Below are positions 18,479 to 32,302 of a stretch of DNA of 64,000 nucleotides, one piece after another (the first letter of the stretch is position 1; each line of letters starts with the position of its first letter). The notes under the pieces were generated by a model. That model did not search any database, was not told the DNA's origin, and saw nothing but the letters and a program-made list of their open reading frames with translations. Source of the DNA: an uncultured Clostridia bacterium (lineage in GTDB: Bacteria; Bacillota; Clostridia; Christensenellales; UBA1242); NCBI GenBank assembly GCA_944351415.1, contig CALVPQ010000004.1, forward strand, positions 86-64,085, written 5' to 3'. The translations under genes and the position numbers were made by a program.

Positions 18479-18991
18479 TTATTCTTTGTCGCTATCATTT
18501 TTTAATTTTAAATTTGCTTTCTTTTGGAATTTTCCATCTTGTTTATAAACAACAAATTTTATATCCTGATTTTTGCTAAGTTCTTGAACCCTTGCAAGAG
18601 CTTCTTCTTTAGTTTTTTTACTATCAATAACTCTAGCGGCACCATCTTTCTTTATTTTCCACATTTTATCTTCTTTATCAAATACAACTCTATATACTGA
18701 TTTTTTTGCCTTTTTTTCAGGTTCTTGTTCATTTTGAACTGTTTTTGTTTCCTCTTTTTCTGCTTTCTTGGCAGTAGTTTTCTTAGATTCAGTTTTTGAT
18801 GATTCTACTGAAGTTTTTTCTGTAGATTTTGAAGCTGTGCTTTTAGTTTGCTTTGCTTTTTTTTCTTCACTATCTTTCACAGTTTCCTTTTCTTCTTTTG
18901 TAACTTCTTGTTTAGTTTCTTCTACTTTTTGCTCTTCTTGTTTTTTGTTCTCTTTTTCTTGAGCTTTTTTCTTTTTGCTAAATGGCCACAT
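18479..18991 (-). CDS. Lys/Glu-rich protein with C-terminal DUF2188-like domain
   Basis: 170 aa. A disordered KE-rich N-terminal 95 aa is followed by YRVVFDKEDKMWKIKKDGAARVIDSKKTKEEALARVQEL, typical of DUF2188. Confidence 0.65.
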   Translation of the reverse strand: MWPFSKKKKAQEKENKKQEEQKVEETKQEVTKEEKETVKDSEEKKAKQTKSTASKSTEKTSVESSKTESKKTTAKKAEKEETKTVQNEQEPEKKAKKSVYRVVFDKEDKMWKIKKDGAARVIDSKKTKEEALARVQELSKNQDIKFVVYKQDGKFQKKANLKLKNDSDKE

Positions 18992-26256: not shown

Positions 26257-29200
26257 TTATTTTTCAGATTTTGAAGCTTCATAAAATTTCTTCTGAGCAT
26301 TAATTGCTTTTACTATACTGTTGATAACCTTATTTTTATTAAGCCACCAATCACGACTCCATACCCTTATAATTTTCCAACCACGAGATTCAAGAAATTT
26401 ATTGCGGTATACGTCGCGTTCCATAATTGAATCACTGCTTTTGAATGCTGCATAGTCACATTCTATACCTAAAAGGTATCTATCAATATTCTTGTCATAA
26501 ACGGCAAGTGAAAGTTTATAATCTGTGCTACCTAAGTTTGTTTCAACGCTATAACCAAGCTTTGTAAGCTCATCTTTTATATATTTCTCAAGATTATTTT
26601 CAACAATAACATCATTTGTTTCTGGCAAGGCAGGTTTAAAACTATTTAAAACATATTCTGCTTCCTTATATTTCTTGTTGGATATTGCTCTAACATATTT
26701 AAGATAACTCTTAAAAATCTTAGGTCCCGCATTCTTTGTGCCTTCAACAGCAAGTTCTTCTGGTTCTATACTTGTGACGACATATATTTTCTCTTTTGCA
26801 CGAGTGATTGCAACGTTAAGTCTATTTTCGCCACCTTCAACTGAAAGTGGACCAAAGTGAGCAACAACCTTGCCATACTCATTTCTTGCATAACCTATTG
26901 AAAAAATGATTATATCACGTTCATCACCTTGAACATTTTCAAGATTTTTAATAAATATTGATGTGTCTTCCCCATTTTCCTTTCTATTTTGCTCTCTGAT
27001 GTATGCATCGCGGAAAGCGGTGTCTTTATGACATTCTTTATCTATAGCATCTTCTATAGCATTTTCTTGCTCTGTATTAAATGTTATAATACCAATAGAA
27101 CTTTTATTTCTCTTATTTTTTATTAGTTTTTTAAGTAGTGTTACAATAGCCTGAGCCTCTTCCTCATTGTGGCGATTAATCCACTTGCCATTGACCTTTA
27201 TTCTTTCAATTGGTTTATTGCCAACATTTTTTGATATATTAGGTGCAATTTGAAGTTTACCATCATAGAAGGCATAGTTTGAGAAGTTTATAAGCTCTTC
27301 ATTTTTACTTCTATAGTGATATGTTAGGTTTGTGCTTGTATAACGAGAAGTTGCAAGGTCTAGTAAACTTTCAACTTCGAGAGCTGCCTGTGTTGCAAGG
27401 TCAATATCGTCATCACTATCATTGCCAAGGTATCTTTTCATAAAGGTTGCTGTTGGGCGGAGCTGTTTAGAGTCCCCTGCGACAACAATAAATTTTCCCC
27501 TATATATTGTTGGAAGTGTGTTTTCTATAAATACCTGACTGGCTTCATCAAATAAAATTATATCAAACATATTCCGTTTAAGAGGAAATATTGTTGAAAC
27601 ACTCTCTGGTGATAAAAGCCAACATGGGAATAATTTAAGAAGATAATCTCCATAAAGTTCCATCATCTTACGAACTGGCATAAGTGCCTGTTGTTTTGTG
27701 ATTTGATATAGATAATTTTTATTATCAGGGTCGCTATTAAAATGTTCCACATAATCACTTTTAAACTTATCAATTGCTATTTCGCTTGATATACGTTTTT
27801 CATCTGCTTTTAAAGACATAATTCTGTTACGTATATTCTCAAAATCAATAATCTTTGAAAGTTTTTCTTTGTTAAGTTCTTCATAGGTTACTGCTTCATG
27901 ATATATTCTTATCTCTAATATTCTGCCAACAATATCTTGAAATTGCCTTAAATTCTTAGAATTTGTAAAGGCAAAGTTAAGAATGGTTTTTTCATCATCT
28001 GTAAGCCCCTGAAGTGAAACATTAACATCACGAATTTCAACATAATCATCAAGAGCATTCAATAGTAACTTTAAGAAAATTGTGTTGCCGTTGACAATAT
28101 TATCAACAGTCATTAGGTATCCTTTTCTATCAAGAACTTTCTCAAGTAAAGAATAATTGCTTATATAATTTTTTATATCATTTAAAGTGCTTTCAAATTG
28201 AGATGCAATCTCTTTTTCCTTCTTGTTTAAGTTATATTTAACAAATGGATAAGCTGGGAATAGAACTTTTGACCAATTTAATGCTTTATGCAACTTTGGA
28301 TAGTCTATTTTTGAAATCATTTTTACAAGCGGTTTGGTGTTTTTGCTGTCTTCTATATCATTTTCAAGCATATATACCATAAGTTGTCTTGCATGTGGGT
28401 GTTTTGCTGTGTCAAAAGGTATAATTGTTTTTTGAATAAGTCCATTTAGATAAGTTTTCATCTGATTGATAACATGAATATCAACATCTGCCCTGATATG
28501 GTCAATAAGTGGATTTGTCTTCTTTAGTTGTATATATCTATAATAAAGTGCTGCCTTATTCTTCTCTTTTATAACTCTGATTGTTTGATAAAGATGTTTG
28601 TAGTCCATCTTCATTATTTCATGATTTTTTAGCATAAGTTTATAAAGCACATAGTCGTTGCTTGTTTTGCCAATTCTAGCAGAATTTGCATACATCTCTT
28701 GCAGTGTTAGCCCAAATGGAGTTTTTGTGAAAAGTGTGTCTGATATAACCTGCAATTCTTCCACTTCTTTTTGAATATTTTTCTCGACAATGGCATACTC
28801 ATCATTTTCTTCTCTGGCATGATATGAACCCATTAAGGCTTGATGCATTTTATTGCAACGTTCATAAAATTCCACCTTATTCTTTTCTGCATCTGTTATA
28901 AACATACATTTTGAATTTAAGGTTTTAAGACGGTTAAATACAACGTCGAGCGCAGCCTTTTTTTGAGATACAACAAGCACTCTTTTATTTTTACAAAGTG
29001 CATCAGAGATGATATTAACAATAGTTTGTGATTTACCTGTTCCTGGTGGACCATATATGACCAAATTGCCAGATTGGTTAAGTTTTGCAATCGCATTTTC
29101 TTGAGCATAGTCAAGGTCGTTTATTGTATATACCCTAGGGTCAATCTTTTTAAGTTTCTTGCTTTGCTTGCCTTGAAGAAGCTGGTCAATCGCTTCGCTT

Positions 29201-30084
29201 GTTAATCTCTTCTTCTCGAGAAGAGAGTAATCATTATATATTGCGTTTGCAAGTGGAAATCTTCCTATAACACAAGTATTAACAATTTTTAAACCATCAT
29301 CTTTAAAAGATGGTTCTTTTATGCTATCAAACCTAACAAGACCTTTATTTGCTTTTTTAAAGTCGTAATCAAACTTAAAGCCGTAAGCTGAAAGATAATC
29401 AAGAACATCTGCTATATTTTTTAATTTATAATCAACAAGGTTATCAAACTCTGTAATAAGCCCCTCATAATTAATGCGATGTTCTTTAGCATAAGCAAGT
29501 AAAAGCACCTTATTAATTTGAATAAGCTCATCATGTTTTGCCTCTATTGATACCGTTTGGTCATCTTCAATATTGATTGTGACAGGGAAAAGTATAAGTG
29601 GACCTTTGATTTGAATATCTTTGCTAAGTTGCCCTACAACAAAAGGATAGCCAATAAACATTTCATATCGGCCTGTTTCTTTTGCGAACTCTTCAATCTC
29701 TCTCTTCAAAGCCTTAAGCTGGTTTACTTGTGAAAGCAGAAGCTTTTTCATTTCTTCCTTCTTTACCCTTTCACGACGAAGGTTCTCACTTCTCTGTTCT
29801 TCAGTTGACATTCCTTTTGTGTCTACAAAAGAAGCTTTAATCTTTGTTTCAAGATTAAAATTTTTTGCAAGTCGTTGCTTTGTATCTTTTCTTATTAATG
29901 CATAGCTTGAACGTTTGCCCTTCCAAAGAAATGTAAGAAATTCATCAAGTTCGTCAGCATCATCTCCTATTACCGCACCAATATCATAGGCATATTTTTT
30001 GCTTAGATTTTTTGAATACAAACTTCGGTTTTTTCCGCTTATTTCTATAAGTCTTTCTTTATAATATGTATAAATTGATTTCAT
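26257..30084 (-). CDS. DUF4011-type SF1 (Upf1/DNA2-like) helicase fused to a C-terminal PD-(D/E)xK (DUF559/Vsr-like) nuclease domain
   Basis: GYPFVVGQL...PLILFPV (DUF4011-like), Walker A IYGPPGTGKSQT, ILFDEASQV, VVAGDSKQLRPT, YHYRS, VQGDERDIIIFS, RLNVAITRAKEKIYVV. Tail is LGIECDY...RDVYRNKFLESRGWKIIRVWSRDWW. Start set to ATG 30084 (GGAAGAG SD) to avoid overlap with rnhB. Confidence 0.8.
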   Translation of the reverse strand: MKSIYTYYKERLIEISGKNRSLYSKNLSKKYAYDIGAVIGDDADELDEFLTFLWKGKRSSYALIRKDTKQRLAKNFNLETKIKASFVDTKGMSTEEQRSENLRRERVKKEEMKKLLLSQVNQLKALKREIEEFAKETGRYEMFIGYPFVVGQLSKDIQIKGPLILFPVTINIEDDQTVSIEAKHDELIQINKVLLLAYAKEHRINYEGLITEFDNLVDYKLKNIADVLDYLSAYGFKFDYDFKKANKGLVRFDSIKEPSFKDDGLKIVNTCVIGRFPLANAIYNDYSLLEKKRLTSEAIDQLLQGKQSKKLKKIDPRVYTINDLDYAQENAIAKLNQSGNLVIYGPPGTGKSQTIVNIISDALCKNKRVLVVSQKKAALDVVFNRLKTLNSKCMFITDAEKNKVEFYERCNKMHQALMGSYHAREENDEYAIVEKNIQKEVEELQVISDTLFTKTPFGLTLQEMYANSARIGKTSNDYVLYKLMLKNHEIMKMDYKHLYQTIRVIKEKNKAALYYRYIQLKKTNPLIDHIRADVDIHVINQMKTYLNGLIQKTIIPFDTAKHPHARQLMVYMLENDIEDSKNTKPLVKMISKIDYPKLHKALNWSKVLFPAYPFVKYNLNKKEKEIASQFESTLNDIKNYISNYSLLEKVLDRKGYLMTVDNIVNGNTIFLKLLLNALDDYVEIRDVNVSLQGLTDDEKTILNFAFTNSKNLRQFQDIVGRILEIRIYHEAVTYEELNKEKLSKIIDFENIRNRIMSLKADEKRISSEIAIDKFKSDYVEHFNSDPDNKNYLYQITKQQALMPVRKMMELYGDYLLKLFPCWLLSPESVSTIFPLKRNMFDIILFDEASQVFIENTLPTIYRGKFIVVAGDSKQLRPTATFMKRYLGNDSDDDIDLATQAALEVESLLDLATSRYTSTNLTYHYRSKNEELINFSNYAFYDGKLQIAPNISKNVGNKPIERIKVNGKWINRHNEEEAQAIVTLLKKLIKNKRNKSSIGIITFNTEQENAIEDAIDKECHKDTAFRDAYIREQNRKENGEDTSIFIKNLENVQGDERDIIIFSIGYARNEYGKVVAHFGPLSVEGGENRLNVAITRAKEKIYVVTSIEPEELAVEGTKNAGPKIFKSYLKYVRAISNKKYKEAEYVLNSFKPALPETNDVIVENNLEKYIKDELTKLGYSVETNLGSTDYKLSLAVYDKNIDRYLLGIECDYAAFKSSDSIMERDVYRNKFLESRGWKIIRVWSRDWWLNKNKVINSIVKAINAQKKFYEASKSEK

Positions 30085-30184
30085 GCTTCTCTTCCTGTTT
30101 CCGTAAATTTTTATATATATATATTTTAACAAAAAAAATAAATATTTCAATATAAAAGCTAAATTTATTTTAATTATTTTTAAA

Positions 30185-30775
30185 TTATTTTTCAACAAAT
30201 TTTTTTATAAAAGTTTGTCGATGTATTTCACAGCTTCCATACTTTTTTAATGCTTCAATATGTTCCTTTGTTCCATAGCCATTATTTTTTGCAAAATTAT
30301 ATTCAGGATATATATTTGATAATTCTTTCATAAGTCTATCTCTATGCACTTTAGCGAGAATTGAAGCGGCTGCAATGTTATAACTGAGAGCATCACCATG
30401 GATTATATTTTCTTGTGGCAAATTAGTTTCTATTTTTACAGCATCAATTAAAACTATTTCAGGTGTTACAGATAAATTCTCAAGTGCTTTTTTCATTCCA
30501 AGTTTCGTGGCATTTAATATATTTATATCATCTATTATTTTTTCATCTATCTCAACTACTTTATAAGAAAGTGCAATAGAAACTATCTTTTCGTAAAGCT
30601 CTTCTCTTTTTTTCTGGCTAAGTTTTTTGCCGTCGTCTATTCCTTCTATAATTTTTTCGTCGCTTAGTGGCATTATAACACAAGCACACACAACAGGACC
30701 TGCAAGTGGTCCTCGCCCTGCTTCGTCAATTCCTGCTATAATTTTCCCCTGATATTTTCTTTCGTAGTCTAGCAT
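30185..30775 (-). CDS. rnhB: ribonuclease HII
   Basis: GIDEAGRGPLAGPVV active-site motif, 196 aa. Confidence 0.92.
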   Translation of the reverse strand: MLDYERKYQGKIIAGIDEAGRGPLAGPVVCACVIMPLSDEKIIEGIDDGKKLSQKKREELYEKIVSIALSYKVVEIDEKIIDDINILNATKLGMKKALENLSVTPEIVLIDAVKIETNLPQENIIHGDALSYNIAAASILAKVHRDRLMKELSNIYPEYNFAKNNGYGTKEHIEALKKYGSCEIHRQTFIKKFVEK

Positions 30776-30858: not shown

Positions 30859-30887
30859 TTGCATATTTAGAAAATTTATGATATAAT
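30859..30887 (+). promoter_or_regulatory. sigma-A type promoter upstream of tRNA-Arg
   Basis: TTGCAT, 17 nt, TATAAT with TG at the extended -10 position (ATGATATAAT). About 125 nt upstream of the tRNA 5' end. Confidence 0.6.
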
Positions 30888-31016: not shown

Positions 31017-31093
31017 GCGCCGCTAGCTCAGCTGGATAGAGCGTTCGTCTACGGAACGAAAGGTCAGGGGTTCGAATCCCTTGCGGCGCACCA
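31017..31093 (+). tRNA. tRNA-Arg (anticodon ACG) with encoded CCA
   Basis: GCGCCGC-TA-GCTC-AGCTGGATA-GAGC-G-TTCGT-CTACGGA-ACGAA-AGGTC-AGGGG-TTCGAAT-CCCTT-GCGGCGC-A-CCA, a full 77-nt cloverleaf. Confidence 0.95.
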
Positions 31094-31118
31094 TCTTGAC
31101 TGCGTCTTGCAGTCTTTT
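31078..31118 (+). repeat. direct repeat copy 1 (tRNA 3' end + terminator, 41 nt)
   Basis: CCCTTGCGGCGCACCATCTTGACTGCGTCTTGCAGTCTTTT, identical to 31226-31266. Confidence 0.95.
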
Positions 31119-31122
31119 TTTT
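31098..31122 (+). terminator. intrinsic terminator after tRNA-Arg
   Basis: GACTGC-GTCTT-GCAGTC followed by T8. Confidence 0.8.
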
Positions 31123-31225
31123 AGGGATTCGAACCAAGGTTCGCCCGTCCCGGCGGGGTGAAAATCTCTTTCACCCGTCTTTGGCTAAAAACTTGGACAC
31201 CGCCAAGTTTTCTTTACGCGTCGAC
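31123..31225. other. GC-rich structured insert bracketed by the tRNA-end direct repeats
   Basis: About 50% G+C in a roughly 30% G+C background. Starts with AGGGATTCGAACC, an inverted copy of the tRNA T-arm. Hairpins GGGTGAAA/TTTCACCC (31156-31176) and AAAACTTGG/CCAAGTTTT (31188-31211). Ends in ACGCGTCGAC. Confidence 0.6.
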
Positions 31226-31266
31226 CCCTTGCGGCGCACCATCTTGACTGCGTCTTGCAGTCTTTT
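31226..31266 (+). repeat. direct repeat copy 2 (orphan tRNA 3' end + terminator)
   Basis: Identical 41 nt, 148 bp downstream of copy 1. No matching 5' acceptor strand upstream, so it is not a functional tRNA. Confidence 0.95.
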
Positions 31267-31426
31267 ACAAAAAAATAATTCCATCATTTTTTATCGGAAT
31301 TATTTTTTTATTCATTAAAATTATTTTTTATATGACTTTATTCTCTTATATTTAAAAAATTTAAAATTTATTTAATTACTTTTTAAAAATTTTATATTTG
31401 TTATCCTTTTTTTTAAAAAAATACTC

Positions 31427-32302
31427 TTAAACTTCATTTTTATTCTGCATTTCCATACTTGCTTTTATTCTATCCTTATAATCTTTTGCATAATGTGAAA
31501 TAGCTTTTTCAAATTCTTGTTCGTTTATTTTGCCAGCCCTAAACAGCTCTAGTTCTTTGCAAGCGAGAAGTCCATTTTGTTTTTCAAATTCCTTTACAAG
31601 AATAGAACACTCAAGCAAAGAGTCAAATGTTCCTGTATCCAAATACTTACACTCATCAGGAAGTATGCATACCTTCGCTTTTTCACTTTTAACATAATCT
31701 TGAATAACATCTGTAAATTCATATTCACCGCGTGGAGATTTTTGCAGTGTCTCAATCTTTTTCATTGCCATATTATCACAAATGTATAACCCAACTGCAG
31801 CATAATTTGTTTTTGGTTTTGAAGGTTTTTCTTCTATGCCAATAATTTTATAATCTTGAGAAAATTCTACAACTCCAAAACGTTGTGGGTCTGATACCTG
31901 TTTTGCAAAAAGCGTCATACCTTGATTTTCTTTTATCGCTTGTTTTAATAGGCTACCCATATCTTTCATAACAAAAATATTATCACCAAAGAGCAATACA
32001 AAATCGTCATCTTTTACAAATTTCTTTGCATACTTAATGGCATTTGCTGTTCCTAGTGCCTGTTTTTGAATATAAAGTTTAACCTTCCCTTTATAAATTT
32101 CGTTATCAAACAACTCTTTAAAAGTTTTATAATCTTTCTTATTGCATACTATTGCTATATCCTCTATCCCTGCCCCAAATAATAGTGATATGCCATAGTC
32201 AATCATTGGCTTGTCATATATTGGAACTAGCACTTTCCCATAACAATCTGTGATTGGTTTTAATCGTGTTGCATTTCCTGCTGTTAAAATAATTGCTTTC
32301 AT
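31427..32302 (-). CDS. sugar-phosphate nucleotidyltransferase (RmlA/GalU-like)
   Basis: MKAIILTAGNATRLKPIT...KVLVPIYDKPMIDY N-terminal signature, 291 aa. Confidence 0.8.
   Translation of the reverse strand: MKAIILTAGNATRLKPITDCYGKVLVPIYDKPMIDYGISLLFGAGIEDIAIVCNKKDYKTFKELFDNEIYKGKVKLYIQKQALGTANAIKYAKKFVKDDDFVLLFGDNIFVMKDMGSLLKQAIKENQGMTLFAKQVSDPQRFGVVEFSQDYKIIGIEEKPSKPKTNYAAVGLYICDNMAMKKIETLQKSPRGEYEFTDVIQDYVKSEKAKVCILPDECKYLDTGTFDSLLECSILVKEFEKQNGLLACKELELFRAGKINEQEFEKAISHYAKDYKDRIKASMEMQNKNEV

Follow-up and report, generated by a model that had tools for sequence, protein, structure and literature searches.

A candidate structured RNA element between a tRNA-Arg gene and a second copy of its 3' end in two uncultured low-G+C bacterial species

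In an uncultured Clostridia bacterium (GTDB lineage Christensenellales; UBA1242), the 3' end of a tRNA-Arg(ACG) gene is repeated a short distance downstream on the same strand, and we analyzed the sequence that the two copies enclose within a 64,000-nt stretch of contig CALVPQ010000004.1 (assembly GCA_944351415.1; hereafter the window, whose numbering is used throughout). With moderate confidence, we read positions 31123-31241 of the plus strand (about 119 nt), which run from the insert between the copies to the CCA of the second one, as a conserved, structured non-coding RNA element that would form part of the tRNA-Arg transcription unit. Judged from its sequence in two uncultured low-G+C species, which are probably Firmicutes given the Spo0A of a relative, it is most likely a small functional RNA, a non-coding candidate of unusual design and of an undescribed type. 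A sequence-only reading of the same DNA had offered four explanations, namely the scar of an excised or decayed integrative element, a miniature element that targets the tRNA, a small RNA gene with its own terminator, and a tRNA-derived rearrangement. We favor the third because the plus-strand fold is conserved between the species, the substitutions preserve its structure, and the second species carries a non-homologous terminator after its second CCA.

The duplicated tRNA 3' end and its counterpart in a second species

The 41-mer CCCTTGCGGCGCACCATCTTGACTGCGTCTTGCAGTCTTTT, which joins the end of the tRNA to the terminator that follows it, occurs as two exact copies 148 nt apart (Table 1) and nowhere else in the window, where shuffled sequences would lead one to expect no such repeat at all. 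Within the first copy, the tRNA part comprises the 3' strand of the T-stem, the 3' strand of the acceptor stem and ACCA; at the second copy, neither ARAGORN nor a permissive Rfam scan found a tRNA or a 5' tRNA half. The 107-nt insert between the copies (31119-31225) has a G+C content of 51.4%, compared with 31.3% for the window and 11-17% for the adjoining intergenic DNA. It opens, after TTTT, with AGGGATTCGAACC (31123-31135), the reverse complement of T-arm bases 31069-31081 (GGTTCGAATCCCT), so that the two form a fully complementary inverted repeat of 13 nt. It holds no credible open reading frame (ORF), those that overlap it being shorter than 60 amino acids and apparently spurious. The duplication, the missing 5' half, the G+C-rich insert and the inverted T-arm copy had all been described in the sequence-only reading, which erred only in a detail here: the palindromes ACGCGT and GTCGAC, said to stand back to back, overlap by two bases (ACGCGTCGAC, 31216-31225), and the GCGTCG within them, which pairs with CGGCGC in copy 2, is better taken as the 5' arm of a fourth hairpin.

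Collapse or chimerism of a repeat during assembly, a concern that the sequence-only reading had itself raised, has next to no probability as the source of this arrangement. The contig is metagenomic and short-k-mer contigs do break at the repeat (other Logan contigs stop inside it or at its end), but the same sequence was recovered in independent assemblies of six samples made with different assemblers (ENA ERZ28615211, ERZ24773279, ERZ24773471, ERZ28614600 and ERZ28614541, and Logan ERR4096283), and a diverged, collinear version is present in another species.

That species is represented by contig L012, which, like the other relatives' contigs discussed below, was reached through homologues of the two flanking proteins. 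Because these proteins are only about 80% identical to those of the window (NTP_transferase 81%, RNase HII 80%), we treat L012 as a different species; its order (NTP_transferase, copy 2, insert, hairpin region, tRNA-Arg, RNase HII, helicase) is collinear with that of the window. Between the two, four-fold degenerate sites of the flanking genes have retained 46-49% identity (31% is expected by chance), the tRNA-Arg is identical at 75 of 77 positions (97%), and the insert at 99 of 107 (92.5%), or at 98 of 102 (96%) when the loop of its second hairpin is left out. Identity is about 23/30 (77%) in the region of the first terminator, and alignable sequence ends one base past the second CCA, with an outer flank that cannot be aligned. 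This comparison indicates that purifying selection constrains the element about as strongly as it does the tRNA. Identity near the level of the tRNA, next to almost saturated neutral sites, is not what a passively decaying scar could show, and the proposed scar of an excised or decayed integrative element gains no support as the present state of the locus; the unevenness of the identity, including the weaker terminator region, tells against the block having been transferred recently in one piece.

The repeat of L012 measures exactly 16 nt, covers tRNA positions 61-76 and ends at the CCA, and the sequences that follow its two copies are unrelated to each other. The acceptor stem contains a compensated pair (C4-G69 in the window tRNA, T4-A69 in the L012 tRNA), and base 69 of copy 2 matches that of its own tRNA in each case (G in the window, A in L012), which, in this pair of sequences, points to concerted evolution or to a shared constraint. 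Past the second CCA, each species has a terminator; the two are not homologous, and that of L012 is strong (GCAAGCG...UGCUUGC, U6). The L012 homologue of terminator 1, in turn, has decayed (-1.5 kcal/mol, z = +0.3, compared with -9.2 kcal/mol in the window). With its first hairpin lost and a strong terminator past the second CCA, L012 appears to transcribe the tRNA and the element as a single unit. Given this degenerate homologue after the L012 tRNA, the second terminator of the window is best seen as a later copy of the first, which probably arose by a conversion tract, and the comparison marks the 41-nt repeat as a lineage-specific extension of an ancestral 16-nt repeat. Of the footprint that had been read into the repeat, the 16 nt at positions 61-76 are common to both species, but the length of 41 nt is particular to one lineage. 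Within the terminator-1 region (L012 5304-5334, window 31094-31122), one pair is compensated (G-C to A-U), and another change gives C-A on the plus strand and U-G on the minus strand.

An arrangement shared by related genomes might also descend from an ancient tandem duplicate of the tRNA-Arg gene, with a second copy that is degenerating and an insert left over from its 5' part; moreover, the L012 tRNA itself opens with the same six bases (GCGTCGC...) as the GCGTCG that directly precedes copy 2, which is what a deletion of positions 7-60 would leave. We consider such a duplicate very improbable. ARAGORN and the Rfam tRNA model are blank in the insert on both strands at E values up to 10, the 107 nt cannot be aligned with the tRNA except for the inverted 13-mer, and a sequence that is 96% conserved outside one loop is not degenerating. 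L012 does share the arrangement, as the sequence-only reading had considered for a decaying tandem tRNA, but the pattern of conservation already largely refutes that history, and a tRNA-derived rearrangement is possible only as the origin of the element.

Fold, strand and the pattern of substitutions

The 148-nt unit has a folding energy of -55.6 kcal/mol (z = -4.3), none of 200 shuffled sequences folded as well, and the three hairpins named in the sequence-only reading are all part of its minimum-free-energy structure. RNAalifold, applied to the two plus-strand sequences (window and L012), gave a consensus of four hairpins, H1 to H4 (Table 1). On the plus strand, the 119/120-nt segment adopts an identical minimum-free-energy structure in both species (z = -3.55 in the window and -3.72 in L012), whereas its minus strand has z values of -0.93 and -1.39 and no common fold.

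Four of the eight differences between the inserts lie in the H2 loop, three in linkers or the T-run, and one turns a G-C pair of H1 into G-U in L012, a pair that is kept on the plus strand only. In H2, 0 of 22 stem positions have changed, as against 4 of 5 loop bases. A U-G pair of H4 in the window is U-A in L012, and the 5' strand GCGTCG, which is unchanged, pairs with either. On the minus strand, three G-U pairs of the window become A-C mismatches, and the same applies to the changes in H1 and H4. Since the substitutions spare plus-strand pairs and the fold appears on the plus strand only, the constrained molecule is, by this evidence, single-stranded and has the polarity of the tRNA. Structural support of this kind rests on where the substitutions fall and on the asymmetry of the strands in two sequences, not on covariation statistics.

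The last hairpin, H4, is a microhelix that resembles an acceptor arm and takes its 3' strand from the second copy of tRNA positions 61-76; in both species it forms an acceptor-stem mimic that ends in NCCA (GCGUCG-ACCCCUUG-CGRCGC-ACCA). It consists of 6 bp and an 8-nt loop in which the 3' strand of the T-stem lies; a T-arm or elbow mimic, as in a minihelix of about 12 bp, is absent. H3 with the CUUU that follows it could act as a weak terminator.

Table 1. Features of the tRNA-Arg locus and its surroundings, in window coordinates
Feature	Position	Strand	Basis or remark
tRNA-Arg(ACG), encoded CCA	31017-31093	+	ARAGORN; Rfam tRNA model 64.2 bits
Repeat copy 1: tRNA positions 61-76, terminator-1 hairpin, TTTT	31078-31118	+	exact 41-nt repeat
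Terminator 1: GACTGC-GTCTT-GCAGTC, then T8	31098-31122	+	terminator scan; -9.2 kcal/mol, z = -3.9
H1: GGGAU/GUCCC around CGAAC-CAAG-GUUCG; unpaired CCC; 5' strand is the inverted T-arm copy	31124-31151	+	
H2: GGCGGG(G)UGAAA / UUUCACCCGUC, loop AUCUC	31152-31179	+	
H3: AAAACUUGG-ACACCG-CCAAGUUUU, then CUUU	31188-31211	+	identical in L012
H4: GCGUCG-ACCCCUUG-CGGCGC, tail ACCA to 31241	31218-31237	+	consensus fold
Repeat copy 2: tRNA positions 61-76, exact copy of terminator 1 (stem 31246-31262, TTTT)	31226-31266	+	
Perfect 14-bp A+T hairpin, between copy 2 and the NTP_transferase stop codon	31269-31309		inverted repeat
NTP_transferase gene, convergent on tRNA-Arg	31427-32302	-	
Likely tRNA-Arg promoter: TTGCAT, 17-nt spacer, TGaTATAAT (extended -10)	30859-30887	+	read from sequence
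RNase HII gene, divergent from tRNA-Arg	30185-30775	-	
DUF4011/AAA_11/AAA_12/MTES_1575 helicase-nuclease	26257-30198	-	

Mobile DNA, relatives and searches for other copies

The tRNA-Arg gene is itself a target of mobile DNA. In two contigs of the window species from other samples (L004 and L005), the 148-nt unit is intact and the anticodon loop of the tRNA is interrupted by an element that encodes a Rep protein; the insertion (L004 5257-6995; L005) corresponds to about position 31046 of the window, and the contigs stop within the element. This Rep belongs to PF23343 (REP_ORF2-G2P) and shares about 30% identity with its counterparts on rolling-circle plasmids of 1.5-2.5 kb from Firmicutes (Ruminococcus, Staphylococcus). 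In a third species group (L020, L022 and L042; RNase HII 83% identical), the tRNA-Arg beside RNase HII is broken after the anticodon loop. Past that break (L020 1913-2083, L022 1-100, L042 1-120) lies a foreign, T-arm-like sequence without an acceptor 3' strand, and about 35 nt further on stands a second, different and complete tRNA-Arg(ACG), as if an inserted element had brought a replacement gene. In Logan assemblies of several samples and two species groups, contigs L002, L038 and L041 begin exactly at CGTAGAC in the anticodon loop, and L040 begins two bases further in, which suggests a branch point of the assembly graph and a widespread polymorphism of occupied and unoccupied sites.

The active integration site at this gene is the anticodon loop and not the position of the repeat. 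In the usual scheme (PMC1762012, citing Williams 2002), integration at the anticodon loop is class I, and at the T-loop class II. The integration footprint claimed in the sequence-only reading is borne out in that the tRNA is an integration target, but the element seen in L004 and L005 does not sit at the 41-nt repeat.

A direct repeat from the T-loop/T-stem to the tRNA 3' end has class II att geometry (PMC1762012, citing Williams 2002), and the locus resembles attL/attR footprints in that a repeated tRNA 3' segment surrounds foreign-looking DNA of a different composition. This geometry would suit a relic or miniature of a tyrosine-integrase element with attL and attR at positions 61-76, of which about 107 nt are left, either mobilizable in cis or merely inherited; the demonstrable use of the tRNA by mobile DNA (the Rep element of L004 and L005, and the broken tRNA-Arg with its replacement elsewhere) and the presence of the tRNA without the insert in a more distant relative, L017, also speak for it. 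We nevertheless regard such a relic as unlikely, if possible. The 107-nt insert contains neither an integrase nor any other gene, no integrase or other mobile-element gene lies near the tRNA-Arg locus, and the sequence is single-copy, with no full-length relative or second copy in the collections searched. A passive scar would decay like the flanks, yet the insert is conserved like a tRNA while neutral sites are near saturation, and, unlike an att footprint, it has a strand-specific structure under purifying selection. In addition, the elements seen at this tRNA occupy the anticodon loop instead of the T-loop, G+C-rich hairpins with strand-specific G-U pairs are atypical of integrase arm sites, and excision as a circle of 148 bp (about 125 bp in L012) is physically hard given a DNA persistence length of about 150 bp. 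Class II integration at the T-loop could be the source of the ancestral 16-nt repeat, which concerns its origin and not its present function, and an integrase-mediated origin followed by domestication is compatible with the conserved RNA element that we favor.

Rolling-circle replicons carry structured, strand-specific single-strand origins, and other samples have a Rep element of the rolling-circle type integrated at this tRNA. The insert might act as DNA, either as protein-binding palindromes (the inner part of H1, H2 and H3) that serve as accessory or decoy sites for a recombinase, or as the single-strand origin of a rolling-circle plasmid: in H2 (8 bp, N5, 8 bp), as in H3 (9 bp, N6, 9 bp), the inverted repeat is perfect, and the H2 spacer varies between fixed arms. 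This, too, we consider improbable. The outer stems depend on G-U (G-T) pairs and can form in one strand alone, the site lies between convergent genes with no promoter to regulate, and blastn found no similarity to any plasmid or phage record. It is, furthermore, hard to see what would select for a single-strand origin in a chromosome, whereas this sequence is kept from one species to the other even in its linkers.

The site is occupied in L012 and in every spanning contig of the window species; an empty-site junction would read as the T-arm GGTTCGAAT, a single repeat and then ACAAAAAAATAATTCC. In L016 and L017 (69-73% NTP_transferase identity), the tRNA-Arg stands beside NTP_transferase in the opposite orientation and without an insert, and L017 (69%), whose tRNA-Arg is identical to that of the window (77/77), has a plain terminator after the tRNA in this inverted context. 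A relative that is closer by NTP_transferase (84%) has unrelated genes downstream, and Logan contigs with the RNase HII of the L012 group or of the L020/L022/L042 group end at the anticodon loop, short of the insert. IMG/VR protein scans with both flanking genes found nothing. As far as seen in these sequences, the element appears confined to two species groups. Downstream of NTP_transferase, L016, L017, L013 and L014 carry the tRNA-Arg in either orientation or other small genes, including one with an ASCH domain, and a rearrangement breakpoint in the clade coincides with the position of the insert.

Three scans with Rfam 15 (1.3 kb permissive, 176 nt permissive, and the whole window at gathering score) matched tRNA only. 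Matches to the element, on either strand, were at chance level (at most 14 bits, compared with gathering scores of 40-80 bits), the Rfam tRNA and transfer-messenger RNA (tmRNA) models had no match in 31095-31270 at E values up to 10, and ARAGORN detected no tmRNA in the window; a known non-coding RNA family, a match to which would by the sequence-only reading have refuted it, did not emerge. No second copy was found in the window by blastn-short or with three mismatches allowed, and covariance model R1 recovered known copies only from the window and 17 related loci. A weak match to the covariance model of the element at 18555-18648 of the plus strand (11 bits, E = 0.22, 33% G+C) is most likely due to chance.

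Larger collections were scanned with exact words of 18-26 nt. In IMG/VR, four blocks of the insert, as well as the junction word of the Rep element and Rep peptide patterns, gave nothing or chance matches in G+C-rich contigs. Among GTDB genomes, the 20-mer CCCGTCCCGGCGGGGTGAAA had one chance match, without extension, in a Rhizomicrobium assembly; this word spans a C/T difference between the two species, so that relatives resembling L012 would be missed. A 21-mer common to both species had two chance matches in JGI metagenomes, and blastn against phage and plasmid records gave no match to the element. Because exact words are needed and the GTDB word lies over a variable base, absence from these collections is weak evidence. 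The miniature tRNA-targeting element of the sequence-only reading gains nothing from the searches, which returned no second copy from the window, the 17 related loci, GTDB, JGI, IMG/VR, phages or plasmids.

Several other candidates were dropped. A miniature transposable element, whether a MITE or a palindromic element derived from IS200/IS605, is contradicted by the single copy in 64 kb and the related loci and by flanks that are a 16-41-nt tRNA repeat. A minus-strand tRNA, a tmRNA and a tRNA with a long variable arm have no cloverleaf and no model match. A T-loop intron, a group II intron fragment, an integron attC site and an IS200/IS605-type element lack supporting features, as does a segment that inverts between the 13-nt inverted repeats, where inversion would also destroy the tRNA. 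A place for the insert in the attachment region of the Rep element, of which the contigs give one junction, was dropped as well.

The transcription unit and its likeness to known RNAs

The extended -10 promoter block, about 130 nt upstream of the tRNA, is kept in L012, L022 and L041, whereas the surrounding DNA is not, and from its sequence it is likely to drive the tRNA-Arg transcription unit. (The leader between promoter and tRNA is shorter in L012, by about 70-95 nt relative to the window.) Transcripts from the tRNA promoter would read through the first hairpin, which is moderate or leaky in the window and non-functional in L012, and the element would be freed from the tRNA by endonucleolytic processing. 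Its 3' end may then be trimmed to H4-ACCA by the exonucleases that finish tRNAs, together with CCA-repair activity, and the outcome would be a stable small RNA with a tRNA-like terminus. Candidate pairing surfaces are the CCC in H1, the CCCC in the H4 loop and the 13-14-nt complement to the T-arm. The element probably dates from the ancestor shared by the two species, where a partial duplication, or else a site-specific insertion, took place at the tRNA 3' end.

Downstream of the second copy, the 14-bp A+T hairpin lies outside the conserved block, in DNA that is not alignable with L012, and is probably the terminator of the convergent NTP_transferase gene. On the other side, the helicase-nuclease (1313 amino acids) combines DUF4011 with the superfamily-1 helicase domains AAA_11 and AAA_12 and a C-terminal, restriction-endonuclease-like MTES_1575 domain; it is directly downstream of RNase HII, a pairing that is kept in all close relatives (L012, L020, L039 and L041). 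Intergenic stretches at 30100-30199 and 31300-31399 have a G+C content of merely 6-9%.

Several observations weigh against a conserved RNA from the tRNA-Arg trailer. The element has no recognizable promoter of its own, and in the window a reasonable terminator (-9.2 kcal/mol followed by T8) separates it from the tRNA, so that its transcription hinges on read-through. H3 and UUUUCUUU could stop transcription before H4 is reached. Only two species carry the element, and their two sequences differ by one-sided changes, with no double compensatory change between them. H2 and H3, as perfect inverted repeats with free spacers, resemble the binding sites of dimeric DNA-binding proteins, and H4, with its 6 bp and 8-nt loop, only poorly imitates what tRNA enzymes usually recognize, an acceptor/T minihelix of 12 bp.

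In E. coli, the 3' external transcribed spacer (3'ETS) of glyW-cysT-leuZ is a functional small RNA cut from the trailer of a tRNA operon (bioRxiv 10.1101/2021.04.25.441314). The element is like it in lying directly downstream of a tRNA on the same strand and in the same apparent transcription unit, in being non-coding and conserved, and in that it would need to be released from the tRNA precursor by processing. However, the 3'ETS is a short, Hfq-dependent sponge without a copy of an acceptor end, whereas the element has about 119 nt, four hairpins and an end made of the duplicated tRNA 3' strand with CCA, and neither sequence nor Rfam links the two.

Bacterial Y RNAs are mimics of tRNAs (PMC4201824). 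With viral tRNA-like structures, mascRNA-type transcripts, YrlA-type Y RNAs and tmRNA, the element would share the character of a non-tRNA transcript that ends in a stem and ACCA, and because of this acceptor-like terminus it could be a substrate for tRNA 3'-end enzymes. In those RNAs, the mimicry takes in the acceptor/T-arm minihelix at least, if not the whole L-shape, whereas the element offers a 6-bp stem and an 8-nt loop with no T-arm mimic; it is, moreover, a literal copy of the 16 terminal bases of the neighboring tRNA and changes with that tRNA. The element fits the sequence definition of neither the 3'ETS, nor the Y RNAs, nor tmRNA.

A more specific proposal, which we think distinctly unlikely, is that of an undescribed kind of structured bacterial trailer RNA whose literal copy of the acceptor strand and CCA evolves in step with the tRNA, is matured and repaired like a tRNA end, and acts by mimicry or through its complement to the T-arm. 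Such an RNA could, for example, serve as a decoy, or compete with the 3' end of tRNA-Arg for the enzymes, toxins or mobile-element functions that recognize it.

If real, the element would add a new type to the few functional RNAs known from the trailers of tRNA operons, and would count among the rare RNAs of bacterial chromosomes to have taken over the acceptor end of one particular tRNA. It would also provide a testable case in which the processing and repair of tRNA 3' ends are co-opted to stabilize or direct another RNA. For annotation, the locus counsels caution: Direct repeats of tRNA 3' ends are routinely taken as the scars of integration, and the sequence between them is here under selection.

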